Of a DNA stretch of 64,000 nt, positions 4,618 to 48,058 are shown piece after piece (positions within the stretch are counted from its first letter, which is position 1; every line of letters starts with the position of its first letter). The stretch comes from an uncultured Gemmatimonadales bacterium (lineage in GTDB: Bacteria > Gemmatimonadota > Gemmatimonadetes > Gemmatimonadales > Gemmatimonadaceae): positions 3,456,001 to 3,520,000 of the forward strand of contig OY969695.1 of assembly GCA_963701965.1 (NCBI GenBank). Reading direction: 5' to 3'. A program made the translations under genes and the position numbers. The notes beneath the pieces are model-generated. The model ran no database searches, was not told where the DNA came from, and saw only the letters and a list, made by a program, of their open reading frames with translations.

Positions 4618-5013
4618 CTACGACGCCACCGCCACCGGGACCGGCGACTCGCTCAACCCCATGGCAATCTGGCGGTTAATGTCGATCAACGGCTGCAGCG
4701 CGGCGGCCGAAGGTTTCGCGAAGACCTCGAGGGTCCGGCGATTGATGAAGCGGGTCAGCAGGATCACGTTGATCCGAACCTGCTTCGGCAGCGGGCAATC
4801 GGCCTCCTCGGCCGACGCCTGAAACACGGCCCAGAGGCGCGTGTTGTATTTGAGCGCGGCATCCAACTGGGCCGCGCGATCCGGCGCATCCCAAGCGCGC
4901 ACGACGGCCTCGATTTGTCGTGCGGACCGGAACAGCAAGAAGGCTTCCAGTTCGCGCGGGGAAGTGGCGGTGCGCTGCGCGGCGCGGTATGCGTCAGAGG
5001 CAGTCGTGGGCAT
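4618..5013 (-). CDS. flaF: Flagellin regulator/chaperone FlaF
   Basis: AYRAAQ...SPRELEA, ALKYNTRLW, PLPKQVR and LIDINRQIAMGL motifs; adjacent to flbT. Confidence 0.88.
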   Translation of the reverse strand: MPTTASDAYRAAQRTATSPRELEAFLLFRSARQIEAVVRAWDAPDRAAQLDAALKYNTRLWAVFQASAEEADCPLPKQVRINVILLTRFINRRTLEVFAKPSAAALQPLIDINRQIAMGLSESPVPVAVAS

Positions 5014-5392
5014 GGGCGAGAAGCTCGTGTTCGTAGTTGAGCAGCTCACGCGCCGTTTTGAGCGCGTGGTAGAAGCGGCCTTTGGACAAATCTTCGTTCA
5101 TTCGGGCGATGAACTTGAGCGTGCTGGGTGCGGCCTTGATGACGTCTTGCGACAGCTTGACGTAGATCTCCTGCTGTTGCGCGCGATTCCGCGGCTCGAC
5201 GTACATGAGCTGAATCGCCAGGTAGATCATCCCGCACGGGCTCGTCGCCGTCCGCGGCGTCAGGATGTCGCGCTCGCGGAGAATCGGCACCGTGTTTTCG
5301 ATGATCAACTCGGTGCGGGCGTTGCCGTTGCGGACCACGGCGCCGCCGAGGATCAGTCGTTCATTCGGTTTCAATACGAGTCGAAGCGCCAT
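4994..5392 (-). CDS. flbT: Flagellin mRNA-binding regulator FlbT
   Basis: MALRLVLKPNERLILGGAVVRNG, PILRERDIL, IYLAIQLMY, FYHALKTARELLNYE. Confidence 0.92.
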   Translation of the reverse strand: MALRLVLKPNERLILGGAVVRNGNARTELIIENTVPILRERDILTPRTATSPCGMIYLAIQLMYVEPRNRAQQQEIYVKLSQDVIKAAPSTLKFIARMNEDLSKGRFYHALKTARELLNYEHELLAHAHDCL

Positions 5393-13442: not shown

Positions 13443-13454
13443 TCGCGAGGATGC
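13422..13454 (+). repeat. 17-bp-period tandem duplication at the methyltransferase/SDR junction
   Basis: ATGATCGCGAGGATGC-A-ATGATCGCGAGGATGC. Confidence 0.9.
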
Positions 13455-13458
13455 GCTG

Positions 13459-14193: not shown

Positions 14194-15898
14194 CACGGTA
14201 ACGATCCAAGGAGCCGGTGTCATCGCGGACGCTTTCGTCCGCCATGGCATCGCGGAGGTTTTCGTCTATCCCGGCGGCACCATCGGCCCAATCCTCGATC
14301 TCATGGAGGGTTTGGGGATCTCGGTCTTTTGCTCGCGCCACGAGCAGGGCGCGGGCTACGCCGCCCTGGCCGTGGCCCGACTGTCGGGACGGCCGCAGGT
14401 CGTGATGGTCACCTCCGGCCCGGGCGTGACGAATCTGGTGACACCGATCGCCGACGCCTATTTCGACTCCGTGCCGCTGGTCATCCTCACGGGACAGGTC
14501 GGCACCACGGACATGCGCGGCAGGCTCCCGGTCCGGCAACGCGGATTTCAGGAAGTCGACACCGTCGCGCTGCTCAAGCCGATCACGAAGGCGCAATTTC
14601 TCCCGCTGACGCCGGACGACGTCCCGGGCGCGATCGAGCGCGCGTTCGCGATCGCCGCCGACGGCCGTCCGGGCCCCGTCGTCGTCGATCTCCCAATGAA
14701 CGTGCAGCGCGGTGACTTGTCGGCCGCGCCGCTCAGCATCGTGCCCCAACTCCCGCTCACGCCCGAACCATCCGCCGTGTCGATGGCCCAAGCCGCGGCC
14801 TGGCTCTCGTGCGCCGAGCGGCCGCTCATCGTCGCCGGGCACGGGGTGCTGTTGGCGAATGCCCACGCGGCGCTGCGGCGGATCGCCGACGGTGGCCGCA
14901 TTCCCGTCACCCAGAGCCTTCTCGGTCTGGGCGCCTTCCCGACCGATCATCCCCTGGCGCTGGGCTTTCACGGCCACACGGGCAACCAGGTCGCCGGTCT
15001 GGCCATTCAGCACGCCGACGTCGTGCTCGTCGTGGGCTCTCGCCTCGACGTCCGGCAGACAGGCACGCGCCCCGATGCCTTCGCGCCGGCCGCCCGCATC
15101 ATCCGCATCGATCTCGACGAGGCCGAGCTGACCCACTCGCGCGTTGCCGCGCATTTGACGGTCCGCGCCAATGCCCACGCCGCCCTGTCGACCCTGGCCG
15201 ATCTCATCGCCCCCCGCGACTACGCCGTGCAGCGGCGCCCCTGGTTGACGCAGATCGCCGAATGGCGGCGCGAACACCGGCTGACGTATGTGACCGGCGG
15301 CCCGCTCAAGCCGCAGCGCGTGATCGAGACGCTCGACCAGTTGACCGCGGGCGAGCCCGTGATCTGCGTCTCGGGCGTGGGGTCGCATCAACAATGGACG
15401 GCCCGGCATTTCACGTTCGATTATCCCACGCGCATCTGGCTCACCTCCGGCGGCCATGGCGCCATGGGCTTTGATCTCCCCGCGGCGATCGGCGCCCAGC
15501 GCCACGCGCCGTCATCGCTCGTGGTGTGCTGCGTGGGCGACGGCTCGTTCCAGATGAACCTGCAGGAGCTGGCGACGCTCGTCGCTTACGAGCTGCCGGT
15601 CAAGGTCATCGTGCTCGATAACCACCGCCTCGGCATCGTCTCCCAGTTCCAGAAGCTCAACTGGCAGCGCGATCCGGCCTGCGGCGACAAGTGGAATCCC
15701 GACTTCGCGGCTATTGCCCGGGGATACGGGCTCATGGCCCACACCGTCGAGCACAGCGCCGACCTCGAGGCCGGTCTGCGCCGGGTCCTCGCGGTGCGCG
15801 GTCCCGCTCTGCTCCATTGTCTCGTCGATCCCAACGAAGATGTGAGTCCCATGCTCCTCGGCGGGCAGACGCTCGACCAGATGTGGACCCGTGCGTAA
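14186..15898 (+). CDS. ThDP-dependent acetolactate synthase-like enzyme
   Basis: YPGG, RHEQGA, TSGPGVTN, FQE, GAMGF and GDGSFQMN...DN ThDP motif. Confidence 0.88.
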   Translation: MADTVTIQGAGVIADAFVRHGIAEVFVYPGGTIGPILDLMEGLGISVFCSRHEQGAGYAALAVARLSGRPQVVMVTSGPGVTNLVTPIADAYFDSVPLVILTGQVGTTDMRGRLPVRQRGFQEVDTVALLKPITKAQFLPLTPDDVPGAIERAFAIAADGRPGPVVVDLPMNVQRGDLSAAPLSIVPQLPLTPEPSAVSMAQAAAWLSCAERPLIVAGHGVLLANAHAALRRIADGGRIPVTQSLLGLGAFPTDHPLALGFHGHTGNQVAGLAIQHADVVLVVGSRLDVRQTGTRPDAFAPAARIIRIDLDEAELTHSRVAAHLTVRANAHAALSTLADLIAPRDYAVQRRPWLTQIAEWRREHRLTYVTGGPLKPQRVIETLDQLTAGEPVICVSGVGSHQQWTARHFTFDYPTRIWLTSGGHGAMGFDLPAAIGAQRHAPSSLVVCCVGDGSFQMNLQELATLVAYELPVKVIVLDNHRLGIVSQFQKLNWQRDPACGDKWNPDFAAIARGYGLMAHTVEHSADLEAGLRRVLAVRGPALLHCLVDPNEDVSPMLLGGQTLDQMWTRA

Positions 15899-17126
15899 GA
15901 CGGTCCTGATCGTGAGCGGCGGCGCCGAGGCCGTGCCCGGCATCCGCCGCGCGCGCGAGCTTGGGTTGCACGTGGTCGTCGCCGACCACGATCCCGCGGC
16001 ACCGGGCATGGCGCTGGCCGACGATCAACTGGTCATCAGCACGTATGACGCTCGAGGGATGGCGGAGGCGGCAGCGCGTTTCGCGCGCGCCGTACGGCGC
16101 ATCGACGGTGTGCTGTCCATCGCCGCCAATGTGCCGCTGACCGTCGCGACGGTCGCCGAGCGGCTGGGGCTCCCGGGGCCCTCGATCGAGACGGCAAGGC
16201 TGGCATCCGATAAGCTGGCTATGAAAGAGCGCTTTGCGTCCGCCGGGGTGCCCATTCCGTGGTACCAGGCAGTCGAGAGCGCGACGGCGCTCGCGGCAAT
16301 CGCGCGTCAGCGAGGGTTGCCATTGGTGATCAAGCCGGTCGACAGCCGGGGAGCGCGCGGCGTGCTGCGGTTGACGCCAGCGGTCGACTTGGGCTGGGCT
16401 TTCGATCATTCCCGGTCGGCATCGCCGACGGGCCGGGTGATGGTCGAGGAATACCTGCCAGGTCCGCAGTACAGCACGGAGTCCGTGCTCCTCGCGTCGG
16501 GCGCCTGGATGCCCGGACTGGCCGAACGCAACTACGAGCGCCTCGAGCGCTTCGCGCCGTTCATCATCGAAGACGGCGGTCAACAGCCACCGGATCTGTC
16601 GCCGGTCGACCGGCAGGCGCTCGCCGATCTTACCGAGGCCGCGGGGCGGGCCCTGGGCGTGACGCAGGGCATCGTCAAAGGCGATCTCGTCATCACACCG
16701 GATGGCCCGCGCGTCATCGAAGTCGCCGTCCGACTCTCGGGCGGATGGTTCTCCACGGATCAGGTCCCGCTGGCCACGGGCGTCGATCTCGTCGGGGCCG
16801 CGATCAAAATGGCCGTGGGCGAGCCGCTCGATCCCGCGACGCTCGTGCCCCAACGCCGCCAGGGCGTGGCGATCCGCTACTTCTTTCCGCGGGCGGGACG
16901 GGTCGAGTCGATCGAGGATGAGGGCCGCTTCCGGAACGTGCCGGGGATCAACCGGATCGGGTTCTTCGTCCGCGCCGGCGACCGGATCGGGACGCCGACC
17001 AACCACACGCAGCGCGCCGGATTCGTCATCGCCACGGGCGCCACGTGCGCCGAGGCGGTCGGCCGCGCCGAATCGGTGGCCCGCGACATTCGCATCGCGA
17101 CGGTCGAGACCGGAGCCGACGCGTGA
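15891..17126 (+). CDS. ATP-grasp ligase (L-amino acid ligase-like)
   Basis: DKLAMKE, VIKPVDSRGARGV, VEEYLPGPQYSTE, IEVAVRLSGG. Confidence 0.82.
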   Translation: MRKTVLIVSGGAEAVPGIRRARELGLHVVVADHDPAAPGMALADDQLVISTYDARGMAEAAARFARAVRRIDGVLSIAANVPLTVATVAERLGLPGPSIETARLASDKLAMKERFASAGVPIPWYQAVESATALAAIARQRGLPLVIKPVDSRGARGVLRLTPAVDLGWAFDHSRSASPTGRVMVEEYLPGPQYSTESVLLASGAWMPGLAERNYERLERFAPFIIEDGGQQPPDLSPVDRQALADLTEAAGRALGVTQGIVKGDLVITPDGPRVIEVAVRLSGGWFSTDQVPLATGVDLVGAAIKMAVGEPLDPATLVPQRRQGVAIRYFFPRAGRVESIEDEGRFRNVPGINRIGFFVRAGDRIGTPTNHTQRAGFVIATGATCAEAVGRAESVARDIRIATVETGADA

Positions 17127-19081
17127 CGCTGCACTGCTTCGCCGTCTTTCACCTCAATCTCGCGTTCTCGTCCATCGAGGAAGAACAGCGTCCGACGGTG
17201 ATGGACCGGTGCTACTGGCCGCTGCTCGATCTCGTGCGCCAGCATCGCGTCCCGATCGGGATCGAGGCGCCCGGCTCCACGTTGGAGATGGCCGAGGCGA
17301 TCGATCCGGAGTGGGTCAATGTGCTGCGCGCCCTGGTGCGGAATGGGCAGGTCGAGTTCATCGGCAGCGGATATGCGCAGCTCATCGGACCGCTGGTACC
17401 GGCCGACGTGGTGCGCGCCAACCTGCGCCTTGGGCACGCCGTGTACGAACGATTGCTCGGCGTCCGTCCGACGGTCGCCCTGGTGCACGAGCAGGCCTGG
17501 TCGGCCTCGCTGGTCTCGCATTACCGCGACGCCGGATACGGCGCCGTCATCATGGAGTGGGAGAATCCTCGCGCGACGCACGAGGAGTGGCCGGCCGAAT
17601 GGCGCTACCATCCCCAGCGCGCGCTCGGGACCGACGGCGCATCGATTCCGGTGCTGTGGAATCACTCCATCGCGTTCCAGAAGCTGCAGCGCTACGCCCA
17701 CGGCGAGATCGAGACCGAGGAGTATCTCGAGTATCTGCGCGGCCACTATGGCGCCGGCGATCGGGTACTGGCGATCTACGGCAGCGACGCCGAGGTGTTC
17801 GACTACCGGCCGGGCCGCTATCGCACCGAGGCCGCGCTGAGCGCGCTGGGCGAGTGGCAGCGGTTGAACGCCCTCTTCACTGTGCTGGGCGCCGAGCCCG
17901 GTCTGGCGCCGATCACGCCGAGCGCGGCGCTCGGGCTGATCAATGGTCCGGATGCCGGCCATGATGTGCGGCTGGAAACCGCCCGGCACCCGGTACCGGT
18001 CAAGAAGCAGCCCAAGTATGACCTCGCGCGCTGGGCCGTCACGGGTCGCGATGATCTCGGCATCAACACGGCGTGTTGGCGTATCGCCGAGGCGCTGATC
18101 GCCCGCGGTGGGGACGACAGCGAGTGGCGGGAGTTGTGCTATCTGTGGAGCAGCGACTTTCGCACGCATATCACGGCGTCCCGTTGGGACGCCTATATCG
18201 CGCGTCTCGCTGCGCTCGACGCGCGTCATCGTCGGCCCAGGGTACTCCGGTCGGCGCAGCCGTTGCCGGCCGAGGTCACCGTGCGCCGCGAAGGCCGGTA
18301 CCTGACCGTCGACACTGAAACCGTTGGCGTGCGGCTCAACTGCCGGCGCGGCCTGGCCATCGACGCGCTGACGTTTCCCCATCTCTCGCCGCTGGCGCTG
18401 TGCGGCAGTGTGCCGCACGGCTACTTCGACCGCATCGATTGGAGCGCCGACCAGTACACGGGGTTTCTGGTCCTCGCGGCCGCCGGTCAACACCAGGTCA
18501 CGGATCTCGAGCCGGCCGAGCCCGTGGTGACGTGGGATGAGGCGACCGACCGCGTCATCGTGAGCGCGTGTGTCGGGACGCCGTTGGGCCGGATCGAAAA
18601 GACAATCGCGGTGGGCCGTGCCGACGCGCGGGTGGAAGTGCGCTACCGGCTCGACTGGCCGGAGATTCCGCTGGGGACACTGCGGCTGGGGCACGTCACG
18701 CTCATCCCGACGTCATTCGATGCCGGCTCTCTGTTCTATGCGACGCACAACGGCGGCACGACGCTGGAGCGCTTCGCGCTCGACGGCGAAGTCGATCATG
18801 TGCAGCCCGTGTCCCACCTCGTCTCGTGTCGAGGGGGCGTGGGTGCGACCGGCGGTGTCATCCTACTGGGTGACGCTCAGAGGGCCGTTCAGATAGAGAT
18901 CGACCGGCAGGCGGCGGCGTTGTTTCCCCTGATCACGATGCATCGCATCGGCGACCGCTATCTGTGCCGGGTGACGCTCTCGGCCCGGGAGTTGGATGAC
19001 ACCAGCCGACTGGGCCGGAGTCGTTTCGTCGACGAGCTGGCCTTCGCGATCTCAGGCCGCGAGCGCGCGGCGGCCCTCTAA
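17123..19081 (+). CDS. GH57/NodB-superfamily (beta/alpha)7 protein, putative sugar deacetylase/hydrolase
   Basis: FHLN...CYWPLL, VEFIGSGYAQLIGPL, YGSDAEVFD motifs; C-terminal beta-rich domain. Confidence 0.55.
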   Translation: MTLHCFAVFHLNLAFSSIEEEQRPTVMDRCYWPLLDLVRQHRVPIGIEAPGSTLEMAEAIDPEWVNVLRALVRNGQVEFIGSGYAQLIGPLVPADVVRANLRLGHAVYERLLGVRPTVALVHEQAWSASLVSHYRDAGYGAVIMEWENPRATHEEWPAEWRYHPQRALGTDGASIPVLWNHSIAFQKLQRYAHGEIETEEYLEYLRGHYGAGDRVLAIYGSDAEVFDYRPGRYRTEAALSALGEWQRLNALFTVLGAEPGLAPITPSAALGLINGPDAGHDVRLETARHPVPVKKQPKYDLARWAVTGRDDLGINTACWRIAEALIARGGDDSEWRELCYLWSSDFRTHITASRWDAYIARLAALDARHRRPRVLRSAQPLPAEVTVRREGRYLTVDTETVGVRLNCRRGLAIDALTFPHLSPLALCGSVPHGYFDRIDWSADQYTGFLVLAAAGQHQVTDLEPAEPVVTWDEATDRVIVSACVGTPLGRIEKTIAVGRADARVEVRYRLDWPEIPLGTLRLGHVTLIPTSFDAGSLFYATHNGGTTLERFALDGEVDHVQPVSHLVSCRGGVGATGGVILLGDAQRAVQIEIDRQAAALFPLITMHRIGDRYLCRVTLSARELDDTSRLGRSRFVDELAFAISGRERAAAL

Positions 19082-20027
19082 CCACTCCGCGAACCGCGCC
19101 AGTCCCGCGGTCAGCGTCGTGGCCGGCCGGTAGCCCAGGAGTCGCCCGGCTTTCTCAATGTTGGCCCAAGTCGCGGGGACATCGCCGGGTTGCATCGGCA
19201 GATGTTCGATCGCGGCCGGGCGTCCGAGGGCGTCCTCGATCCCGGTCAGGAGCTCCCGCATCGAGACCGGCTGGTCGTTCCCCAGGTTCATGATCTCGAA
19301 CGGGGTCGCCCGATAGTCGAGCGCCGCCCGAATGCCGGCGACAATGTCATCGACGTACGTGTAGTCGCGCATGGTGGCGCCGTCGCCGAACACCGGCAGG
19401 CGCTCACCGCGCAGGACCTTCGACGCGAACCGGTGAATCGCCAGATCCGGCCGCTGGCGCGGGCCGTAGACCGTGAAGAGGCGGAGCGCCAGGAATCGCA
19501 TGCCGTGCCGCGCGGCGTACTCCCGTCCCAGGTCCTCGCCCAACAGCTTCGTGAGCGCGTATGGGCTGATGGGCTGCAATGCCGCATCCTCGTTCCACGG
19601 CGTATGCGGATTCACGCCATAGACACTGCTCGACGATGCGAAGACGAACTGGGGGATGCCCCGCTCGCGCGCCAGCTCCAGCAGATTGTAGGTGCCGTTC
19701 ACGTTGACATCGTGATACAGCGCCGGGTGTTCGAGCGACGGACGGACCCCGGCCCGCGCCGCCAGAATGCACCACGGCGTCGTAGTCGCCGCGGAGCCGC
19801 GCCCGCAGGGTGGGGAGCGTCCGGATGTCCGACTGGACGAGCGTGTAGCCGCGATAGGCCCCGTGTCGCGCCACCTGCTGGCGCTTGAACGCCGGCGGAG
19901 AGAAGTCGTTGAAGTCGTCGACGACCGTGACGCGCCATCCCTCGGCCAGCAGCGCGTCGGTCACGTGGCTGCCGATGAATCCCGCGCCGCCGGTGACGAG
20001 TGCGTGCCGCGTCATGTGAGAGCTCAT
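19052..20027 (-). CDS. NAD-dependent epimerase (UDP-glucuronate 4-epimerase-like) with apparent +1 frameshift near 19766
   Basis: TGGAGFIGSH...DAVVH in one frame joins LAARAGVRPSL...ASSSSVYG, PYALTK and TVYGPRQRPDLA in the next. Confidence 0.8.
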
Positions 20028-21421
20028 GTGAGGGCCGCCAGCTCGCCGGCGACGCGCGTCAAGAGCGCGCTCCAGTCATGGCGGGGCTCGGCGCCCATGA
20101 TGCGCATCGTCGGATACCACGGCCGCCGCCCGGTGTTGAACGACGTCCAGTCACCCTGGGGGCTCGGCAGGAGCCGCCACGCCGGCACGCCGAGGGCGCC
20201 GCTCAGCTCCCCGACGGCGTTGCCGACGGTGATGACCAGGTCCAGGTTCGCGATCAACGCCGCCATGCCGTCGAAGTCATCGCGCCGGTCGAGATCCGGG
20301 AACTCGTGAATGTGGACGCCGAACCGGTCCCGCGCGGTCGCCAGAGCGAGCGAGCAGTCGTCGTACTGCAGGTTGATGAACTGCGCGCCGGGCGTCTGCA
20401 GCACCGGACCCCACCGGTCGAGCGTCGAGTAGGAACGGGCCCGCTCGGCGGTCATGAGCCCGCTGCGCCAGCTGATCCCCACCTTGAGCCCGGGGCCGAG
20501 CGCGGCGACGCGCGCGTGCCACTGCCGCACGCGCTCCGCGTCGGGAACGAGATACCCTGAGTGCGTGGGGAAGCTCTCGACCGTGGGCCTAAGCCAACGC
20601 GGCAGATCACCGATCGCCGACTGGTAGTCCGCCGCGAGCGGTTCGGCGGGCGGTTCGACCCGGGCCGAGTTGATGACGTCGGCCTGGGGGAACGATCGGG
20701 TAAAGAGCGAGACGAGTCGCGACGTGCAGGCGAACGTCACTTTGCCGGCGCGGGCGATGAGATCGGGCAGGCAGTTGGCGAACATGATCTCGTCTCCCAC
20801 GCCCTGCTCGCGCCACACCAACACGTGCTGGCCCGTGATGTCCTCGCCCGACCACTGCGGGTAGGGGAGTGGATAGCGCCACTTCGCGTACCGCGTATGT
20901 TGCCAGCGGTAGGCGTAGCCTTCCCAGCCCGCCTGGAGATCGCCCGCGCACAACTCGTGGAGGGCCAGATCCCAACGCGCTTCGTTCTGCTCAGGCTTGA
21001 GCGCGACATAGCGCCGTCCGGCCGCGACGCGCTCGTCGAGCAACTCCAGGTCGTCCGTGATCCTCCACAGCGCCGACGCCGCATCCACCGAGTCCGGCGC
21101 GTAGCGCACGGCGTCCCGGAAAAATTCCCGGGCCGCCGGCAAATCGCCCGCCATGGCGCGCAACTGCCCCAGTGCGAGATGCGCGCCGGATAACGTGCGA
21201 TCCAGCGCGAGGGCGCGCCGGAGCGAAGCGACGGCGTCGTCGTGTTGGTTGAGGCTCGCCAGCGCGAGTCCCAGCGCCAGGTGACCTGCCGCGAGCCGCG
21301 GCGTCTCCGCCAGCCCGCGCCGGTAGGCGACGACCGCGGCATCCAGGTTCCCGGACCGGTGCAGTTCCGCGGCCGATTCCAGCGAGCGAACGGCGCGCTG
21401 GATCTTGGCGGTGGCCGTCAC
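20024..21421 (-). CDS. Second TPR plus GT-B glycosyltransferase
   Basis: TPRs, then VWREQGVGDEIMFA, GISWRSG and INLQY; paralog of 5598-7814. GTG start overlaps the upstream stop. Confidence 0.75.
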   Translation of the reverse strand: MTATAKIQRAVRSLESAAELHRSGNLDAAVVAYRRGLAETPRLAAGHLALGLALASLNQHDDAVASLRRALALDRTLSGAHLALGQLRAMAGDLPAAREFFRDAVRYAPDSVDAASALWRITDDLELLDERVAAGRRYVALKPEQNEARWDLALHELCAGDLQAGWEGYAYRWQHTRYAKWRYPLPYPQWSGEDITGQHVLVWREQGVGDEIMFANCLPDLIARAGKVTFACTSRLVSLFTRSFPQADVINSARVEPPAEPLAADYQSAIGDLPRWLRPTVESFPTHSGYLVPDAERVRQWHARVAALGPGLKVGISWRSGLMTAERARSYSTLDRWGPVLQTPGAQFINLQYDDCSLALATARDRFGVHIHEFPDLDRRDDFDGMAALIANLDLVITVGNAVGELSGALGVPAWRLLPSPQGDWTSFNTGRRPWYPTMRIMGAEPRHDWSALLTRVAGELAALT

Positions 21422-21927
21422 GCGTGCACCGGCGCCGCGACCACTTCCAGCGTCGGATCCAGTGCGATGGCCCGTGCGCGGCAGCGGGCCGCCTCCGTCG
21501 GATCTCCCCCAATCTCGCACAGGTGCGCGAGGTTGAGCCATGCCAGCGCGTTCGTGGGATCGATCTCGATCGCGGTCGTGTAGCAGCGTGCCGCGTCGGC
21601 CGGGCGTCCCAGGGCGACCATGACCCGTCCCAGATTGCTATGGTACGCCGGGACCCGGTGTTGGCGCGCGATCGCTTGGCCGATCCAGTCGGCGGCCAGG
21701 GCGTGTTGCCCCAGCTGGCTGGCGGCGACCCCGGCCAAATGCATGGCACCGGGGTCGCTTTCGTCGACAGCCAGTCCCCTCATGTACAACACTGCTGCCT
21801 CTATGTACCGCCCCGCGACGTGGTGCGCGTAGCCGTCCCGAATGTATGTCCGGACCCGAGCGGCATCCGAGGCGGAGAGCGCTGGTGAAGCGTCCCAGTC
21901 CCGCATCGGGGCGAAGTCGAACATCAT
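21418..21927 (-). CDS. Small TPR-only protein
   Basis: About four TPR repeats (AMHLAGV, YHSNLGRV, AWLNLA). Confidence 0.7.
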   Translation of the reverse strand: MMFDFAPMRDWDASPALSASDAARVRTYIRDGYAHHVAGRYIEAAVLYMRGLAVDESDPGAMHLAGVAASQLGQHALAADWIGQAIARQHRVPAYHSNLGRVMVALGRPADAARCYTTAIEIDPTNALAWLNLAHLCEIGGDPTEAARCRARAIALDPTLEVVAAPVHA

Positions 21928-21985: not shown

Positions 21986-22855
21986 TCAGAGACCAAAAAG
22001 ATGGAGGACGCTCGCGTTCGCCTGACTAGCCAAGCTCAGAGACTCGATACCGAGGCTCTGGCGAGTCTGGAGGGCCAACATGTTCGCGCCTTCCTGGTTC
22101 GGATCGGCCAGGGTGAGGTTATCCGCGCCCTGGTTCAGGGTGTTGACCGTGCTCGACGCGAACTGCTGACGGATCGTGACCACGCCGAGGTTCGCGGCGA
22201 GGGTCTGCGTCTGCGTCTGGAGGCTGGACAGCGCCGAGGTCAACTGGTTCGCGTGCGTGTCGAGGATGTTCTGGAAGCTCGCATTGCCCCAGCTGTGGGC
22301 GCCGGTCGCACCTGCCGACACGATACCCAGACCGGTGGCCGTCGACGCCGCGAAGGTCGTGCGCCCGCCGGCCAGCGCCGAGAAGCCTTGCAGCTTCAGC
22401 GAGCTGGTGTTGTTCTCGTTGAACACGACGGTCAACGACTGGTTCTCGAGCAGGTTGATGCCCTTGTAGTTGGCATCGGCGACTGCCTGGTTCACCTGCG
22501 TGCGAAGCGTGTTGAACTGCGTCTGCAGCGTGTCGCGGCCGGCCGTCGTCGCCGAGCGGGCCGACTGAATGACACCTTGCATCTGCTGGATCAGGGCCGT
22601 GATCGCGGTGATGCCGTTCTGGGCCTGCGTCACCGTCTGCACCGCCTCACCCATGTCGTTCTGCAGACCCTGGAGGTCGTTGGCGCGGTTCCGCTCCGAC
22701 GACGCCGTGAAGAACGAGCTCGGATCGTCGATCGCGCTGTTGACCTTGAACCCAGTGGCCAGATCGTTCTGGGTCTTGTTCATCTGCGTGGTCGTGTTCT
22801 GGAGGCTGAGCAGGTTCTGCTGCATCGAGGCCGACAGAACGATATTCGTCGACAT
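21986..22855 (-). CDS. fliC: Flagellin (289 aa, alpha/Desulfobacterota type)
   Basis: LSASMQQNLLSLQ...LATGFKVNSAIDDPSSFF and LTLADPNQEGANMLALQTRQSL...SLSLASQANASVL. Confidence 0.93.
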   Translation of the reverse strand: MSTNIVLSASMQQNLLSLQNTTTQMNKTQNDLATGFKVNSAIDDPSSFFTASSERNRANDLQGLQNDMGEAVQTVTQAQNGITAITALIQQMQGVIQSARSATTAGRDTLQTQFNTLRTQVNQAVADANYKGINLLENQSLTVVFNENNTSSLKLQGFSALAGGRTTFAASTATGLGIVSAGATGAHSWGNASFQNILDTHANQLTSALSSLQTQTQTLAANLGVVTIRQQFASSTVNTLNQGADNLTLADPNQEGANMLALQTRQSLGIESLSLASQANASVLHLFGL

Positions 22856-22933: not shown

Positions 22934-22962
22934 GTATCGGCCGGCACCGCCGCCGAGTTGAG
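22934..22962 (-). promoter_or_regulatory. sigma28 promoter for flagellin
   Basis: CTCAAC-N15-GCCGATAC. Confidence 0.85.
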
Positions 22963-22977
22963 GATGTGCTGCACCGA

Positions 22978-23006
22978 CTCAAGTCTGGACACCGCGCCGC
23001 CGATAC
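22978..23006 (+). promoter_or_regulatory. sigma28 promoter for the divergent unknown gene
   Basis: CTCAAG-N15-GCCGATAC, 8 nt before ATG 23015. Confidence 0.85.
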
Positions 23007-23014
23007 TGGACAGC

Positions 23015-23749
23015 ATGTCCGTCAGTGTCCTGACTTCCACGATCCAGAACACGTTTGGTGAGACGCGCACCGATGCGCAGTACATCGGGGATCTCAACAA
23101 CCGTCAAACGTATCGGATCGACTTGACCGGGTCGCTCGTCCCGCGCGATAAGGGCGACTACTACAAGTTCCGCGTCACGGCGAACAACACGAACATTCGG
23201 TTGTTCTCATTCGAGCAGACGGCGGGCAGCGGGACCACTGCCGCCAACAGCTCCAGCACGCCGCAGGGCACGGCCGCCAATCCGCTGGACACCGGCAACC
23301 TCACGTCCCTCGTCGACCAGGGACAGTTGCGGTACCAGTTGTATACCCAGACGGGCAAGCTGGTGGCCGATAGCAGCCCGGGGTCGGGGAACCTGTTCCA
23401 TGCCTATCAGAACCTCACCAGCTCGACGAATATGCAGCTGTCGACGGGCACCTACACGATCAAGGTCTCGCCGGGGCCGAACGCGAACCCGCACACCACG
23501 TACGAGTACCTCTTCACGCTGCGGGGCGACGGTTCGCCGATCACCGATACCAGCACCAATGCCACGCGCCGCGCGTTCGACACCACGGCGACGGCCGCTA
23601 GCAACAAGGACACGACGGTGACGCTCGGCAGTGCCGGGAATGCCACCATCCTGAGCACGAATGCGGGTGTGTCGGAGAGCCTGTTCACCACTCTGCAGAA
23701 CAGCGCCAGCGGCCAGACCAGCGGGTCGACGATCAACCTGCTGGCGTAG
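23015..23749 (+). CDS. Unknown Ser/Thr-rich protein with PPC-like beta-sandwich motifs, candidate flagellar export substrate
   Basis: DKGDYYKFRV...YQLY...GTYTIKVS pattern, no signal peptide, C-terminal GSTINLLA, own sigma28 promoter. Confidence 0.7.
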   Translation: MSVSVLTSTIQNTFGETRTDAQYIGDLNNRQTYRIDLTGSLVPRDKGDYYKFRVTANNTNIRLFSFEQTAGSGTTAANSSSTPQGTAANPLDTGNLTSLVDQGQLRYQLYTQTGKLVADSSPGSGNLFHAYQNLTSSTNMQLSTGTYTIKVSPGPNANPHTTYEYLFTLRGDGSPITDTSTNATRRAFDTTATAASNKDTTVTLGSAGNATILSTNAGVSESLFTTLQNSASGQTSGSTINLLA

Positions 23750-23750
23750 G

Positions 23751-24908
23751 CTAGGCTGTCGGTCCCAAATAGTTCGCCAACGAGAGACCGAGCACGCGGC
23801 TGGTCGCTTCGTACGCCGCGCTCAGCGCCGTCTGCGCGGTCAGGAGCTGCGTCGCCACCTGCGCCGTATTGATATTCTCGATATTCCCCTGCTGGGTGCT
23901 CAGGCTCGCCGCCTGGGTCGACTGCGTGCTGGCCGTGTTCTGCATCGTCTGCAGTGTCACGCCGGTCTCACTCTGGAGCCCCAGCACCTGCGTCTGCGTG
24001 CTCTCCAGCTGCGTGGTGGCCGAGGAGATCGTGTCGCTGGTCCCGGTCTGGAGCGCCTGCAGGGTCCCCTGGAGGGCGGCGATCGTGTTGCCGAAGATCT
24101 GGTCGCCGGTATGGTTCGTCGACACGGTCTGGCCGCTGCCAATGAGCGCTTGCGGGCGGTTCGTATCGCCCTGATAGGACAGGCCGGATGCGACGGCGAT
24201 CGTTTGCTTGTTGAGCGCCGCGACCGTGAACCCGGTGCCCGCCGCGATGGTGACGCCGAGGGTGCTGAAATTGAGCGCCGTCGTGCCGTTGGTCACGCCC
24301 GTGATCGTCTGCGACTGCGTCGGATCGCTCTGATTCGTCAGTGTGACGTCGCCGGCGCCGTCGGTGGTCAATTCGTAGACACCGGCTTCCGCGCCACTGC
24401 CCACAGTGACCGCACCGTCGGTCGCGCTGAGACTCGTGCCAACGAGTCCCGCCGTGCCAGGGGGCGTGGCCTGCATCGGCGGCTGGTCGGTCTTCAAGCC
24501 TCCAAAGACGTAGTTGGAGCCCACCTGCGTATTCGCCAGGTCGACGACCTGTTGCAGCAAGTCGTTGATCTCGGTGATCGCCGAGGTCCGGGTGGAGTCC
24601 CCGGGCTGCGAGTTGGCCGCGCTGGCCGCGCTCGACTGCGCCGAGGCCAGCATCTGGTTCACCGCCGTCTCCACCGAATCCTCGGTATCGAGATTCGTCT
24701 GGACGACAGCCTGATTCTGCTGGTACTGGGTGATCGCCGCCTGATTGAACGAGATGTTTATGACCTGACCCGTTCCCTGTGGGTCATCCGACGGCTGATT
24801 GAGCTTACGCTGCGTCGCCAACTCCCCGGCAAGTTGCTGGAGCTGGCTGTCCTGCGTCATTATGCCGTTGACCAGCGTTTGGTACCGGCTGAGGTCTGAA
24901 ATTCCCAT
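23751..24908 (-). CDS. flgL: Hook-filament junction protein FlgL
   Basis: ATQRKLNQPSDDP, LANTQVGSNYVFGG, ALSAAYEATSRVLGLSLANYL. Start moved to ATG 24908, just after the promoter. Confidence 0.88.
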   Translation of the reverse strand: MGISDLSRYQTLVNGIMTQDSQLQQLAGELATQRKLNQPSDDPQGTGQVINISFNQAAITQYQQNQAVVQTNLDTEDSVETAVNQMLASAQSSAASAANSQPGDSTRTSAITEINDLLQQVVDLANTQVGSNYVFGGLKTDQPPMQATPPGTAGLVGTSLSATDGAVTVGSGAEAGVYELTTDGAGDVTLTNQSDPTQSQTITGVTNGTTALNFSTLGVTIAAGTGFTVAALNKQTIAVASGLSYQGDTNRPQALIGSGQTVSTNHTGDQIFGNTIAALQGTLQALQTGTSDTISSATTQLESTQTQVLGLQSETGVTLQTMQNTASTQSTQAASLSTQQGNIENINTAQVATQLLTAQTALSAAYEATSRVLGLSLANYLGPTA

Positions 24909-27329: not shown

Positions 27330-27569
27330 ATGCACGTGTCCGGCCCCAACGGCGCCAACCCCTATCTCAATGTCCTGTCGCCGCAACCGGCGCCGAAGCC
27401 GCAGGCCGCGGCAAAGCCTGATGCCGCGCTCTGGAACGTCTTGACCGATGAAGAGAAGGGCTTCTTCGAACAACTCGCGTCCATGGGACCGCTGACGTAC
27501 GGCGGCCGTGGGGCGCAGCAGCAACCGGCCGAGGCCCCCCTCGGCCAACGCATCGACGTGCGAGGCTAG
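27330..27569 (+). CDS. Small hypothetical protein between flgC and fliE
   Basis: GAGAGGA RBS, LTDEEKGFF helix, C-terminal GQRIDVRG. Confidence 0.65.
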   Translation: MHVSGPNGANPYLNVLSPQPAPKPQAAAKPDAALWNVLTDEEKGFFEQLASMGPLTYGGRGAQQQPAEAPLGQRIDVRG

Positions 27570-27880: not shown

Positions 27881-29377
27881 GTGGCTACGCTCGTTCCGGC
27901 GGACCTTCTCGCCCAGACTCGTGCCTTTGGCGCGGCCAACCGCCGATTCGCGGCGCTCGGCCTCATCATCGGCGGCCTCGCCGTCCTGTGGGTCGCCAGC
28001 AAGTGGATGACGGGGCCGACCTACGTGACGCTGTACCACGACATCGAGCTGTCCGCGATGAGCGGCATGACGGAGAGCTTGACCAAGGGCGGCATCGCGT
28101 ACCGCTTGGAGAGCGGCGGCAGCGAGATCCTGGTGCCCGTGCAGGACGTGGCCCGCGCCCGCGTGCTCTTGGCCAAAGACGGCATGCCCATGTCGGGCCG
28201 GCCGGGCATGGAGCTCTTCGACAAGCCGACGTGGGGCATGACCGACTTCACGCAGCGGGTCACCTATCGGCGCGCGCTCGAGGGCGAGCTGTCCCGCACC
28301 ATCGGTTCATTGGAGGGGGTCCAGCGCGCCGAAGTCCACCTGGCGTTGCCGGAGGACAGTCCGCTCCGCCGGCTCAATCGCCCGGCCGAGGCGGCCGTCG
28401 TCGTGAGCCTCAGGCCGGGTGGGATGCTCACGCCCGGAGTCGTCCAGGGCATCTCTTATATAGTCTCGAACAGCGTGGAAGGCCTGCCCGCGCAAAACGT
28501 CGCGGTCATCGACGCCGCCGGCCGCCTCTTGTCGTCACCCGTCGACACCGGGACATCCGGGCTGTCGTCGCGGCAGCTCGACATGCAGCGCGCCACCGAG
28601 AAGGAACTGGGCGACAAGATCAATGGGCTGGTGGCGACGGTACTGGGCCCGGGGCATAGCCGCGTGCAGATCGCGGCCAAGATGGACTTCGACCAGACCG
28701 AGCGCACCACCGAGACGTACGATCCCGACGGGCAGGTGCTCAATACCGAGCAACGCAGCGAAGCCACGGGTGACCAGACCGAGGCGGGTAGCGGCAACCA
28801 GACCGTCATCAGCAACACGTACGCGAACACCAAGAAGGTCGAGCGCACCATCGGCTCGACGGGCACGATCAACAAGCTGACCGTCGCCGTCTTCGTCGAC
28901 GAAAAGGCGCTCGCCAAGAGCGCGGCGACGCCGGCCAAGGCCGACTCGACGCTCAAGAGCTTCAATGCCGCGATCCGGAATGCGATCGGACTCGACACCG
29001 CGCGGGGCGATCGCCTGACCTTGGCGACCATGCCGTTCGAGATCGACCCGCTGGCGATCACGAAACTCCCGGCCGATTCGGCGCCCAAGCGCGACGTGCT
29101 GGTCGTGGTCGAGCGCTTCAGCCGCCCGGTCATCATGCTCATCGGTATCGCGCTCGCGTTCGTGCTGGCGCTCAAGCTGATGGCGGCGGCGCCCGGATCG
29201 CCGGGGTCCGCGCCCGGCGCGCTGGCATCGGGATCCGCCGAGCTGGCCACGCCCGTCGCGCCGATCGTCATGGCTGACGCCACGCACCGGCTCAAGGCTG
29301 GCGTGCGCAACCACATGTCCGAGGAGCCGGCCCAGGCCGCACAGGTCGTCCGGGCCTGGATCGGGGAATCGCGCTGA
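27881..29377 (+). CDS. fliF: MS-ring protein FliF
   Basis: GMELFDK, YRRALEGELSRTI, AEVHLALPE; two TM segments. Confidence 0.93.
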   Translation: MATLVPADLLAQTRAFGAANRRFAALGLIIGGLAVLWVASKWMTGPTYVTLYHDIELSAMSGMTESLTKGGIAYRLESGGSEILVPVQDVARARVLLAKDGMPMSGRPGMELFDKPTWGMTDFTQRVTYRRALEGELSRTIGSLEGVQRAEVHLALPEDSPLRRLNRPAEAAVVVSLRPGGMLTPGVVQGISYIVSNSVEGLPAQNVAVIDAAGRLLSSPVDTGTSGLSSRQLDMQRATEKELGDKINGLVATVLGPGHSRVQIAAKMDFDQTERTTETYDPDGQVLNTEQRSEATGDQTEAGSGNQTVISNTYANTKKVERTIGSTGTINKLTVAVFVDEKALAKSAATPAKADSTLKSFNAAIRNAIGLDTARGDRLTLATMPFEIDPLAITKLPADSAPKRDVLVVVERFSRPVIMLIGIALAFVLALKLMAAAPGSPGSAPGALASGSAELATPVAPIVMADATHRLKAGVRNHMSEEPAQAAQVVRAWIGESR

Positions 29378-30403
29378 TGGCGCTCCAGTTTCCGCGGCAG
29401 GAGGCGGAGCTGACGGGCGTCCAGAAGGCGGCCGTCCTCATGATCGCGGTTGGCAAGGACAAGAGCGCCGCGATCCTCCAGCATCTGACACCCGAGGAAG
29501 TCGAGGCCATCTCGAAAGAGATCGCCGCCCTCCGGACGGTGAAGGCCGACGTCGTCAATGCGGTACTCAACGAGTACCAGGGCGTCGCCCGCGCCGTGCA
29601 GTCGTTCGCGACCGGCGGCCCGGAGGTCGCGCAGGAGATCCTGGAGGCCGCCGTGGGATCGGATCGCGCCAAGGTCATCTTCGTGCGCATTCGCGAGGCG
29701 CTGGTGCCGACCGCGCTTGGCAAGCTCAAAAAGGCGCCGCCGGACATGCTCTTGAGCGTTCTCCGCGGCGAGCACCCGCAAACGTTGGCGCTCATCCTCG
29801 CCCACCTGGACAGCGCGCAAGCGGCCCTCGTCATCGAGCTCATGGAGCCGGTGTTGGCGGGCGAGGTGCTGTACCGAATGGCCTCGATGGACAAAGTCTC
29901 GCCGGACATGCTGGCGCTGGTCGAAGATGGCCTGCGGTCGAAAACCGACCTGACGCTGACGCAGGAGATGACGCTGTCGGGCGGACCCAAGGCGGTCGCC
30001 CAGAATGCTCAACTTCGCGCCGCCGTCGATCGAGCAGGCGTTGATCGCCAGCATCGGCGAGCGCGATGAGGCGCTGGCCACGCAGATCAAAGATCTCATG
30101 TTCGTGTTCGAGGACCTGGTCCTGCTCGACGGGCGGTCGATGCAGCGCGTCCTCCGCGATGTCGACGGCAAGGAGCTGGCGGTGGCGCTCAAAGTCGCCA
30201 GCGAAGCGCTCAAACAGCACATCTACCAGAACATGTCGGAACGCGCCGCGGCGGCGCTCAAGGAGGAGTTGGAGTACCTGGGCGCCGTCAAGGTCAAGGA
30301 TGTCGAGGCGGCGCACATGAACATCGTGCAGCGCGTGCGCGCGCTGCAGGAGACGAACGAGATCACGATCTCGGGACGGGGCGGCGGCAATGTCATCCTT
30401 TAA
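29377..30403 (+). CDS. fliG: C-ring protein FliG with apparent +1 frameshift near 30004
   Basis: LTGVQKAAVL, EHPQTLALIL, GGPKAVAQ, then MLN...MFVFEDL, LAVALK and NMSERAA in the next frame. Confidence 0.9.
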
Positions 30404-38860: not shown

Positions 38861-39211
38861 ATGAACTACCCCAATTCCGATCAGAACAGCGATCCGGCGT
38901 TCGACCAAATCGATGTCGCGCCGCTGGCCGAGCTGGGCGCGTCGGCGGGCAACGGCGGCGTGCAGACGCTCGACGCGCTGCTCGACGTCAACCTGCCGGT
39001 CACGATCGAGTTCGGGCGGACCGCCATGGTCGTGCAAGAGGTGCTGGGCTTGGGACCAGGATCGGTGATCCAGCTGAGCCGCATGGTCGGCGAGCCGGTC
39101 GACGTCTATGTCGCCGACCGCAAGTTCGCCGAGGGCGAAGTCGTGGTCGTCGGCGAGCACTTCGGCGTCCGTATCATCCGCATTCTTCCCGCTAGCGATC
39201 AACAGGCTTGA
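38861..39211 (+). CDS. fliN: FliN (in frame with the FliM C-terminus)
   Basis: GAGGA RBS before ATG 38861; LLDVNLPVTIEFGRT, GEVVVVGEHFGVRI. Confidence 0.88.
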   Translation: MNYPNSDQNSDPAFDQIDVAPLAELGASAGNGGVQTLDALLDVNLPVTIEFGRTAMVVQEVLGLGPGSVIQLSRMVGEPVDVYVADRKFAEGEVVVVGEHFGVRIIRILPASDQQA

Positions 39212-42771: not shown

Positions 42772-44855
42772 CGACGGCCGCGCTGCCGATTCCGCCGCGC
42801 CGGCTCGCCGTCGGCGCGCTCTCCGCCGAAACCTGGCTGGCGATCGCGGTCGTGACGGTGGTGGGCCTGTTGGTCCTGCCACTGCCGCCCCTGGCGCTCG
42901 ATGCCATGCTGGCGCTCAGTATCGCGCTCTCCATCGTCGTGTTGCTGGTCACGGTCTCGACGCGCGACCCGCTCGACTTCAGCATCTTCCCCAGCCTCCT
43001 GCTGTTGCTGACGTTGTTCCGGTTGGGCCTCAACGTCGCCACGACGCGCCTCATCCTCGGGCGGGGACAGGCCGGGCACGTGATCGCCGCATTCGGCAAC
43101 GCGGTGGTCGGTGGGAACTATGTTGTCGGCCTCGTGATCTTCCTGATCCTGATCGTGATCAACTTCATGGTGATCACGAAGGGCGCCGGGCGCATCGCTG
43201 AAGTGGCGGCGCGGTTCACGTTGGACGCGATGCCCGGGCGGCAGATGAGTATCGACGCCGATCTCTCGGCGGGCATCATCGATGAGAACGAGGCGCGCCG
43301 GCGACGCGAGCAGATCGCGCGGTACGCCGACTTTTACGGCGCCATGGACGGCGCCGCCAAGTTCGTCCGCGGCGACGCCGTGGCCGGTCTCATCATCACG
43401 ATCATCAATCTGGTCGGTGGCTTCGTGATCGGCATGGCGCAGCTGGGCATGAGCGCGTCGGAGTCGGCCCAGACGTTCTCGTCCTTGTCGGTCGGCGACG
43501 GTCTGGTGACGCAGATTCCGGCGCTCATCGTCAGCACGGCGGCCGGCATCATCGTCACCTACGGCTCGTCGAGCCCCAGCGTCGGGCCGGCGATCGCCGC
43601 GCAGCTTACGCGATATCCGCGGGCCATGTGGATCGCGTCGGGCATTCTGGCGCTATTGTCGGTGGCTCCGGGGTTTCCGTTTGCGCCGTTCATGCTGCTG
43701 GCGGTGGCCACGGCCGCGGTCGGGCGCTTCTCGGCGAGACGGAGCCGGGAAGCGATCGCGGAGGCCGAGGCGCCCGCGGCGCCGCCGCCGCCCGCGGAGA
43801 CCGCGGGGCAGCAGGTGAAAGAGGCGATGAAGGTCGAGCCGTTGGAGTTGGAGATTGGCTATGCGCTGGTGCCGATCGTCAACGGCGCGCAGGGCGATCT
43901 CCTGCAGCGCATCGCGCTCATGCGCAAACAGCTCGCGGTCGATCTCGGCATCGTGGTTCCGTCAGTGCGCATTCGGGACAACATCCAGCTGCCGTCTACC
44001 GGGTATGCGATCAAGCTCCGCGGCGTCAAAGCCGCTGGCGGCGAGCTGATGTCGCATCACTTGCTGGCGCTCGACACGACGGGCATGGCCCGCGCGATCG
44101 AAGGCGTGCCGACGAAAGATCCCAGTTTTGGCATTCCCGCGGTGTGGATTCGGCCGGAGAGCCGGCTGGAGGCGGAAGGGCGGGGGTTCAGTGTCGTCGA
44201 GCCCGCGGTCGTGTTGTCGACGCATCTCATGGAGTCGATCCGCCGGCATGCGTCGGAGTTGCTCACGCGGCAGAATGTGCGCGAGCTGCTGGATACGCTC
44301 AAAGAGACCAATCCGGTGCTGGTCGACAATGTCGCGGCCAAGCTGTCGCTGGGCATCGTCCATCGGGTCCTGCAACGGTTGCTCAAGGAAGGGGTGCCGG
44401 TCCGCGATCTCGTCATCATCCTCGAGACGCTGTCGGACGCGGGCGATCAGGCGAAAGACCCCGAGGCGCTGACCGAGCATGTCCGCCGGGCGCTGGGCGG
44501 GGTCATCGCCCACCAGTACGCCGATGTCGACGGCGTGATCCGTGGCATCACCATCGGGCCCAAGCTGGAATCGGCGCTCATGACGCTGTTCACCGCGCGG
44601 CCGACGCGCGAGTCGGTGAAGGCGCTGGAGCCCGATGACATCGCGGCGGCGCTCCGGGCGTTGGCGGATACGGCAGCGCGGACGAAACGCGATGGCCAGT
44701 ATCGGCCGCTGGTCACGCCGCCGGCGCTCCGCGTCGGCGTGCGGCGGCTGGTCGAACCCGTGCTGCCGCTCCTACCCGTACTCTCGCTCGGCGAACTGCC
44801 GGCGCAGACGATCATCAATCCGGTTGCCACCTGGGAAGTGAGCCGTGTCGCTTAG
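42768..44855 (+). CDS. flhA: FlhA
   Basis: RIAEVAARFTLDAMPGRQMSIDADL, FYGAMDGAAKFVRGDA. Confidence 0.96.
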   Translation: MTTAALPIPPRRLAVGALSAETWLAIAVVTVVGLLVLPLPPLALDAMLALSIALSIVVLLVTVSTRDPLDFSIFPSLLLLLTLFRLGLNVATTRLILGRGQAGHVIAAFGNAVVGGNYVVGLVIFLILIVINFMVITKGAGRIAEVAARFTLDAMPGRQMSIDADLSAGIIDENEARRRREQIARYADFYGAMDGAAKFVRGDAVAGLIITIINLVGGFVIGMAQLGMSASESAQTFSSLSVGDGLVTQIPALIVSTAAGIIVTYGSSSPSVGPAIAAQLTRYPRAMWIASGILALLSVAPGFPFAPFMLLAVATAAVGRFSARRSREAIAEAEAPAAPPPPAETAGQQVKEAMKVEPLELEIGYALVPIVNGAQGDLLQRIALMRKQLAVDLGIVVPSVRIRDNIQLPSTGYAIKLRGVKAAGGELMSHHLLALDTTGMARAIEGVPTKDPSFGIPAVWIRPESRLEAEGRGFSVVEPAVVLSTHLMESIRRHASELLTRQNVRELLDTLKETNPVLVDNVAAKLSLGIVHRVLQRLLKEGVPVRDLVIILETLSDAGDQAKDPEALTEHVRRALGGVIAHQYADVDGVIRGITIGPKLESALMTLFTARPTRESVKALEPDDIAAALRALADTAARTKRDGQYRPLVTPPALRVGVRRLVEPVLPLLPVLSLGELPAQTIINPVATWEVSRVA

Positions 44856-46512: not shown

Positions 46513-47291
46513 CCACGCCCTTGGCGGAGGGCCCCCTCGTGCTGCTCGTCGGCAGCGGCAAGGGCGGCGTCGGCAAGTCGGTGCTCTCGATCATTCTGGG
46601 ATCGATCGCCGCCCGTGCCGGCCGCCGCACGCTGCTGTTCAATGCCGATCTCAACCTCGGCAACCTGCACGTGCTCCTCGGCGTCCGCCCCACGGCCCGC
46701 GTCGACGCGCTGCTCAATGGCGACGTCGAAGCCGCCGATCTCGTGCGCCCCCTGCGCGAGAACCTCTGGCTCCTCCCGGGGACATCGGGCGGCGAGCGAC
46801 TGCACGGTCTCGAGTCCCTTGACCGCGCCCGCTTGGAAACCCGGCTCAGCGTCCCCTTCACCGACTACGACGTCGTGATCGTCGACGCCGGTGCCGGCAT
46901 CGACGGCGTGGTGCGCACCGCGACCATCAGCGCCAGTCGCCTGGTCGTCGTCACCGTCCCGGAACCCGCGGCCCTCACCGACGCCTACGCCCTGATGAAG
47001 ATCGTGCACCTCCGCACCCCCGACATTCCGATCGACGTCCTGGTCAATCGCTGCCGGGATGATGCGGAAGGACGTGCCGCATTCGATAAACTGGCCACGG
47101 CCAGTGAACGCTTCCTGCGCCGCGGCATTCGACACCTTGGCAGCGTCGGCGAGGAGTCAACCATCGGCGCCGCCGCTCGCGAGCCCTCCAGCTGTCTGTC
47201 GATTCTCGACGCCAGCCTCGCGGCACAGAGCTTGACTTCCTGTCTCCTCGACCGGATGGAATTACCGGCACCTGTACGGAGTACGCAATGA
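46509..47291 (+). CDS. flhG: MinD-like ATPase FlhG/FleN
   Basis: SGKGGVGKS, ADLNLGNL, DAGAGI, PEPAALTDAYALMK. Confidence 0.9.
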   Translation: MTTPLAEGPLVLLVGSGKGGVGKSVLSIILGSIAARAGRRTLLFNADLNLGNLHVLLGVRPTARVDALLNGDVEAADLVRPLRENLWLLPGTSGGERLHGLESLDRARLETRLSVPFTDYDVVIVDAGAGIDGVVRTATISASRLVVVTVPEPAALTDAYALMKIVHLRTPDIPIDVLVNRCRDDAEGRAAFDKLATASERFLRRGIRHLGSVGEESTIGAAAREPSSCLSILDASLAAQSLTSCLLDRMELPAPVRSTQ

Positions 47292-48058
47292 CCCCAACGG
47301 CAGAACACACGGACATCCTCTGGTCGCGCTATCGCTCGACCGGCGATCCGGACGCGCGCCGGCAACTGCTCGACCGCTACCTCGGCCTCGTGCACCACGT
47401 CGCCCGCGAGATCGCGTCGCGGACGCCGGCCGTGGAGCTGGATGATCTGGTGAATGCCGGCGCACTGGGGCTCGTGCGGGCGTTGGAGAGCTTTGACATC
47501 TCGCGCGGACTGGCGTTCAGCACCTACGCCATGACGCGCATCCGCGGCGCGGTGCTCGACGACCTGCGGGCCCGGGACTGGACCCCGCGGTCCGTCCGGG
47601 TCAAAGCCCGGCAGTTGGCGGCGGCCGTCGCCGCGCTGGAGAGTCGCTTGAACCGCGCGCCCGAACCGAAAGAGATCGCCGAAGCCCTGGACATCGATAT
47701 CGAGACGTACTGGGCCTGGCAGGCCGCGATCGGAGGCGGCGTGATGGTCTCGATCCATCACTCGGCCGCCGACGAGCATATGGAAGGGCCCACGCTGGAG
47801 GAGACCCTCAATGATCCCGACGCGCAGGGGCCCGGCGCCGAGCTCGCCCAGGGCGAGCAGCGCGCGCTCTTGCGCGAGGCCATCGCGGCCCTGCCCGAGA
47901 AAGAGCGCACCGTGCTCGCCCTCTACTACTACGAAGAGTTGACGCTCAAGCAGATCGCCGAAGTGCTGCACGTGACCGAATCGCGCATCTCGCAGATTCG
48001 GACGCAAAGCCTCCGGCGGTTGAAGCAGCTTCTTACTACCGAGGCCATGTTCTCATGA
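47288..48058 (+). CDS. fliA: Flagellar sigma factor FliA (sigma28)
   Basis: FSTYAMTRIRGAVLDDLRARDWTPRSVR, LYYYEELTLKQIAEVLHVTESRISQI. Confidence 0.95.
   Translation: MTPTAEHTDILWSRYRSTGDPDARRQLLDRYLGLVHHVAREIASRTPAVELDDLVNAGALGLVRALESFDISRGLAFSTYAMTRIRGAVLDDLRARDWTPRSVRVKARQLAAAVAALESRLNRAPEPKEIAEALDIDIETYWAWQAAIGGGVMVSIHHSAADEHMEGPTLEETLNDPDAQGPGAELAQGEQRALLREAIAALPEKERTVLALYYYEELTLKQIAEVLHVTESRISQIRTQSLRRLKQLLTTEAMFS

Follow-up and report, generated by a model that had tools for sequence, protein, structure and literature searches.

To our knowledge, how a flagellar filament is built without the cap protein FliD has been answered for Caulobacter only, by FlaY. FliD (HAP2) itself is encoded by a late gene beside flagellin. 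In the case of Caulobacter crescentus, with a flagellum of the FlbT/FlaF type and a genome without FliD, FlaY is encoded together with flagellin, flbT and flaF and is presented as a FliD analog (Kint and Viollier 2023, as cited in PMC13277936 and 10.1101/2024.09.25.614892); as a control in our searches, that genome gave no FliD match. In a table of PMC13277936, FlaF, a flagellin secretion chaperone (PMC7591256), appears as the counterpart of FliS in the same species. Additionally, PMC12363192 describes CP1: the Phaeobacter mutant secretes FliC and is without flagella, the C. sphaeroides gene belongs to a fliC-flaF-flbT-CP1 run, and the protein was not found in the exoproteome. Finally, the last six residues of C. 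jejuni FlaG are predicted to pair with the FlhA strand IRIRDNLRL, and this pairing is backed by mutants in the strand, which show longer filaments and less FlaG secretion (PMC11536152).

The window analysed here (the whole stretch of 64,000 nucleotides) comes from an uncultured Gemmatimonadales bacterium, the genome of which is 95% complete and a single contig. Between flagellin and flgL it carries a gene, in the following called X, which a first-pass annotation had read as a possible filament cap or accessory protein (Table 1). The flagellar, late-gene and FliD-exclusive part of that reading found strong support, whereas the export of X and its placement at the filament tip are points that we still infer.

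Table 1. Positions in the window of X and of the flagellar features to which it is compared.
Feature	Position	Strand	Remark
flaF	4618..5013	-	flagellin chaperone, swapped filament module; Pfam FlaF E 3e-27
flbT	4994..5392	-	swapped filament module; Pfam FlbT E 1e-39
Flagellin	21986..22855	-	alphaproteobacterial-type, 289 aa
Sigma28-type promoter of flagellin	22934..22961	-	same form as that of X, back to back with it
Sigma28-type promoter of X	22979..23006	+	TCAA-N16-GCCGATAC, ATG 8 nt downstream
Gene X	23015..23749	+	244-aa ORF
flgL	23751..24908	-	convergent with X
Sigma28-type promoter of flgL	24942-24916	-	same form
FlhA strand VRIRDNIQL	43965..43991	+	counterpart of the C. jejuni FlaG-binding strand
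Sigma factor gene, likely fliA	47288..48058	+	sigma70 regions 2, 3 and 4; after flhF/flhG

Gene and promoter

X is rich in Thr (17.2%), Ser (11.5%) and Asn (8.2%), with Cys and Trp absent, and in this respect it does resemble the adjoining flagellin and FlgL, as had been proposed when it was likened to the exported axial proteins of the cluster. The proposed lack of a Sec signal also agrees with our analysis, the highest N-terminal 10-residue hydropathy being 1.48; a value of 2.0 was reached by none of the 168 members of the family, and none was signal-like. The X stop codon (TAG, 23747-23749) and the flgL stop (23751-23753) are separated by one base, as described before. Against Pfam, X had no match at E<=0.1, and Pfam and NCBIfam together provided no family for it, merely weak DVUA0089/PPC-type matches; the ESM Atlas gave unnamed clusters at 0.93 and PPC at 0.82. 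No account of the family was found in the mainly open-access literature searched, so that an earlier mention is possible.

The first-pass annotation had also assigned to X its own sigma28 promoter, back to back with that of flagellin. Motif inspection and a random-window control confirm this, as a perfect match to TCAA-N16-GCCGATAC was absent from all 5000 random windows of 100 nt drawn from the genome. The same form also stands before the operon at 4603, in which a flgM-like gene follows. As the X promoter ends so shortly before the ATG, the transcript is likely leaderless; in both flgL and X the start lies 7-8 nt past the -10 box, and both are likely leaderless sigma28 transcripts. Judged from its sequence, the sigma factor gene of Table 1 is likely the one that reads these promoters.

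The promoter is kept in relatives. All seven Gemmatimonadota homologs of X have it upstream with 0-2 mismatches, and in the six copies unlinked to flagellar genes it lies 7-10 nt before the ATG; matches positioned in this way, with 0-2 mismatches, were seen in 0.26% of 5000 random windows. A genome-wide promoter matrix gave the highest ranks to flagellin, flgL, X and the flgM-like operon, having been trained on those very sites, and its sole independent match was a sigma28-like site of flbT. Altogether, consensus -35 and -10 elements, their spacing, conservation in relatives and the presence of a sigma factor gene indicate that X probably belongs to the sigma28 regulon. One RNA run, with 0.06 of the words present and three short contigs, was uninformative for the transcription of X.

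Filament module and distribution in Gemmatimonadota

The absence of fliD, first noted for the cluster, extends to the whole genome: FliD_N and FliD_C were unmatched anywhere, so none is located outside the cluster either. Within the same genome, no FliS profile match, no DUF1217, no FlaY-like gene (profile search, best E 0.32) and no FlaG-like gene were found. As a separate observation, the flagellin, flbT and flaF of this Gemmatimonadota cluster are all of alphaproteobacterial type.

To describe the distribution, 401 genomes of the phylum were searched for X, for window-type flagellin (E<1e-57) and for FliD_C. X was detected in 8 genomes spanning 3 genera, its homologs carrying the source label Gemmatimonadales. 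Window-type flagellin was likewise detected in 8 genomes, 7 of them common to both sets (Fisher p 2e-13, which is overstated because few lineages are involved). FliD_C was present in 91 genomes, none of them among the 9 with X or window-type flagellin. In the tested genomes with this flagellin type, FlaF occurred in 5/5 and FliS in 0/5. Seven FliD-type loci of the phylum, 25 of whose 126 ORFs were compared with Pfam, were all ordered fliC-fliD with fliS nearby, and X was in none of them; at the same cluster position, the swapped-type loci have fliC-flbT-flaF (4/4 loci). Thus the filament module has been exchanged at this position and, with FlaF counted as the FliS analog, X is left as the member of the module that is set against FliD. 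Like FliD, X is a late gene beside flagellin, and it is found where fliD is missing, in the same cluster position of the phylum.

Individual genomes deviate from this pattern. In G345, X, flgL, flaF and flbT are present and flagellin was not found. G365 (93% complete) has flagellin, flaF and flbT, yet it is without FliD_C, and X was not found in it even with a 142-row profile. G396 retains the gene order flgL-X-fliC, and in six genomes of the phylum X adjoins a phosphodiesterase-like gene, distant from flagellar genes.

Distribution in Alphaproteobacteria

In a sample of 241 alphaproteobacterial genomes, X was present in 18, of which 17 also had Flagellin_N; the remaining one (G451), a fragmented genome, gave no Flagellin_N match. 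A 19th match (G467) was dropped as an M23 peptidase. FliD_C was over the cut-off in 60 and DUF1217 in 33 of the 241. Three of the 18 X genomes have FliD_C, each time with a further, canonical flagellin at a distance of 1.5-1.7 kb and thus as a separate fliC-fliD pair, an arrangement that A. brasilense also shows in its minor FliC2-FliD cluster (PMC12826043). DUF1217 was found in one X genome, which is one of these three. X genomes with FliD or DUF1217 numbered 3 against 6.8 expected (241 genomes, p 0.075), a weak avoidance computed over related genomes that are not independent. The expected overlap rises to 10-13 if 160-130 genomes are flagellated, a number that is assumed, and solely then is the avoidance strong. 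DUF1217 itself (33/241) overlaps with FliD in 2 genomes and with X in 1 and is a second unrecognised candidate cap.

Of 11 genomes with neither X nor FliD nor DUF1217, FlaF occurred in 5. G405, which has FlaF and none of the three, carries a FlaY-like gene. In G413, the flagellins are of the window class, and X, FliD_C and DUF1217 are all absent. Overall, the co-occurrence with FlbT/FlaF-type flagellin and the exclusion of fliD, both anticipated at first reading, were seen in two phyla. X occurs in FliD-less flagella and is tied to flagellin genes, with G365, G413, G451 and G345 as exceptions, and comparison of the genomes shows it to be a member of the FlbT/FlaF filament module that avoids FliD.

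Regarding gene neighbourhood, a fliC-flbT-flaF-X run was found in three alphaproteobacterial genomes among the 16 non-Azospirillum loci; two further loci sit inside flagellar clusters, fliR lies 6.6 kb from another, and 10 lack any flagellar structural gene over a distance of 8 kb. Homologs were also found in 19 Azospirillum replicons, with 2-3 paralogs per genome, and the three annotated Azospirillum loci are all unlinked hypothetical genes, likewise with no such structural gene over that distance. The expectation that homologs are linked to flagellar genes was consequently only partly borne out: linkage is missing for most alphaproteobacterial copies and for six of the seven Gemmatimonadota copies, which retain the promoter. 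On the basis of these sequence comparisons, we give the retained promoter and the phylogenetic profile more weight than the missing linkage. In small-genome alphaproteobacteria, X was seen near an EAL-like gene (L159, L160, L165; 3 loci) or adjoining an adenylate-cyclase-like gene (L164, L167, L169-L171; 5 loci, Pfam on one).

A profile search for X returned 195 representatives at E<=0.001, including 2-4-fold tandem forms; a tandem three-domain form and a cadherin-insertion form lie at L165:7125-8870 and L168:7449-8543. No X was found in 80 Caulobacter-like metagenome FlaF loci, many of them short. Cluster look-ups for 20 proteins named a single taxon, Dongiaceae. Twelve residues are conserved in both phyla: A21, G25, L41, D48, F52, G114, A118, D119, G145, Y147, Y165 and T190. 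In a tree of 37 rows, from which the three-domain member and the M23 false match were excluded, a branch (99/94) separates the copies of the phylum from all other rows, their neighbours being alphaproteobacterial. As this tree is unrooted, the direction of transfer is taken from the wider spread of X in Alphaproteobacteria.

Comparison with FliD, FlaY and CP1

X had no match to FliD_N or FliD_C at E<=0.1, nor had 16 family members at E<=0.5. It is under half the size of FliD and differs from it in predicted fold: FliD has long coiled-coil legs, whereas the model of X has one 10-residue C-terminal helix of low confidence. In some alphaproteobacterial members, the sequence points to longer helical stretches at the termini.

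For FlaY, we took the gene that follows the final flagellin gene of Caulobacter-like metagenome loci, a choice based on the accession order in the table of PMC13277936. These FlaY-position genes encode 921-971 aa with beta-propeller repeats, whereas the X family has 190-300 aa and a predicted beta-sandwich. No profile similarity was found between X and the FlaY-position proteins: hhalign gave a probability of 0.1, and 4.8 bits was the best score within the X family. The beta-propeller is presumably the fold of FlaY and is, together with gene order, the basis of this label. Next to X, G190 and G345 each have a FlaY-profile match; these are propeller proteins with signal peptides and were rejected as FlaY.

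Neither DUF1217 nor CP1, which by our guess may be DUF1217, matched X in sequence. The slot after fliC-flaF-flbT that CP1 has in C. sphaeroides, according to PMC12363192, is that of X in the three alphaproteobacterial runs.

Predicted fold

A structure model of X was built on a 142-sequence alignment (pLDDT 81 overall, core >90). It predicts a single jelly-roll beta-sandwich of the PPC/collagen-binding type at about residues 4-193, together with a helix and two terminal strands, followed by a flexible tail. The PPC-like nature first read from the motifs DYYKF and GTYTIKVS, both present, is thus backed by the model, and Foldseek returned a PPC/collagen-binding-type match at E 3.4e-4. For an earlier model from a shallow alignment (pLDDT 67), none of the Foldseek matches reached E<=0.001. 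The best fold match was the collagenase collagen-binding/PPC domain 5iku (Z 10.6, rmsd 3.0, 111 aligned), and the sandwiches of PPC, ColG collagen-binding domain and PliG superpose on the model with Z 8-10.6. The PF04151 cut-off was passed by a three-domain member of the family, with X itself below it. In contrast to these domains, X stands alone, with no protease and no signal peptide, is tied to flagella, and is predicted to have an additional helix and further strands at both termini. The fold matches listed for the two models include no flagellar protein, a result that rules nothing out. Likewise, a predicted PPC-type fold shared with other proteins is no proof of function.

This generic extracellular binding fold, the missing legs and the flagellin class without X (G365, G413) are evidence against a cap. 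The fold and these two genomes would suit an X that is exported through the flagellar channel as an accessory protein or adhesin, decorating the filament or being released, with the filament assembling capless. The match to collagen-binding/PPC domains, the tandem forms of 2-4 copies, the cadherin insertion and the paralogs point in this direction; the tandem forms and the Azospirillum paralogs fit an adhesin equally well. However, an accessory protein is not expected to avoid FliD and DUF1217, nor to be retained in 7 of 8 genomes with window-type flagellin, and the 12 residues conserved in both phyla also argue against it. We therefore regard this explanation as unlikely.

PliG among the fold matches (Z 8.4-8.5) brings in another explanation, namely that X is co-regulated with motility but has its function outside the filament, such as binding flagellin in the cytoplasm or, with its PliG-like fold, inhibiting a lytic enzyme. 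The majority of copies being unlinked to flagellar genes would be in line with this. PliG is periplasmic, though, whereas 168/168 members of the X family are without signal peptide, the composition of X is like that of exported axial proteins, and the exclusion of FliD would be unaccounted for. In our view such a role is improbable.

C-terminal tail

The G-x-x-hydrophobic-N/D-x-x-A end that the first-pass annotation had pointed out is present, closing the flexible tail together with a short helix. A pattern G-x(1-3)-hydrophobic-D/N-x(1-3)-end was found in 50/142 X members, 7/14 FlaG-like proteins and 1/441 other ORFs, counts to be read knowing that the pattern was composed after viewing the ends and that the relatives are not independent. 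This FlaG-like tail suggests an export route for X, for which the VRIRDNIQL strand of FlhA is a possible candidate docking site, and equally underlies an alternative in which X is itself FlaG-like, its C-terminal strand binding the FlhA gate and tuning flagellin delivery and filament length. FlaG resembles X in the pattern of its C-terminal strand and is likewise a sigma28-type late gene by flagellin. The tail pattern common to both families, the window FlhA with its counterpart of the C. jejuni strand (PMC11536152) and the lack of a FlaG-like gene in this genome are in favour of this alternative. Size and predicted fold differ, however, and X had no match to the FlaG Pfam family (PF03646). 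None of the FliD-type clusters of the phylum showed FlaG (Pfam on the ORF subset), consequently X is not a FlaG replacement there. FlaG also occurs together with a FlaY-position gene in Caulobacter-like loci, so the two coexist; moreover, the 190-residue extracellular-type domain would be left without explanation, and the tail may be the simple export signal of a cap. A FlaG-like role is, for these reasons, quite unlikely.

Proposed role

We consider it somewhat more likely than not that X is exported and caps or nucleates the growing filament where FliD is lacking, or acts there as a polymerisation factor, without being related to FliD or FlaY. In such a mechanism, sigma28 would switch X on together with flagellin and FlgL, after hook completion. 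X would leave through the flagellar export channel, its C-terminal strand possibly docking on FlhA, and a chaperone would not be needed. Several copies could then sit on FlgL and later on the filament tip, where the beta-sandwich would hold unfolded flagellin until it is folded in. In terms of evolution, some Gemmatimonadota may have traded fliC-fliD-fliS for fliC-flbT-flaF-X, the incoming genes being rewired to the host's own sigma28. That X further represents an independently evolved class of cap, with a small PPC fold, FlaG-like docking on FlhA, independence of FliT and an inter-phylum fliC-flbT-flaF-X module, has in our estimate an even chance.

If the cap role is true, X is a new, unrelated solution to the problem of filament assembly. 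With FlaY and probably DUF1217, there would be at least three unrelated, rarely co-occurring caps in FliD-less bacteria, which suggests that flagellin incorporation may be catalysed by unrelated folds. X would also be the candidate cap for Azospirillum and other alphaproteobacteria, some of which are genetically tractable. The comparison also shows a filament module that has crossed between phyla and come under the sigma28 of its host.

Other observations in the window

A 79-aa gene between flgC and fliE (27330-27569) is kept in relatives of both flagellar types; it has no Pfam match, and its tail G-x-x-I-D-x-x resembles the end of X. The genes fliG (29377-30403), flgE (35887-37151) and fliM (37852-39211) seem to be split by frameshifts that are probably assembly errors. 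Finally, a flagellin glycosylation island extends over about 5600-21900 and includes FlmG-like TPR glycosyltransferases. Genes of this island are 41-59% identical to flagellin neighbours in Caulobacter-like loci, and the island was therefore likely acquired with the filament module.
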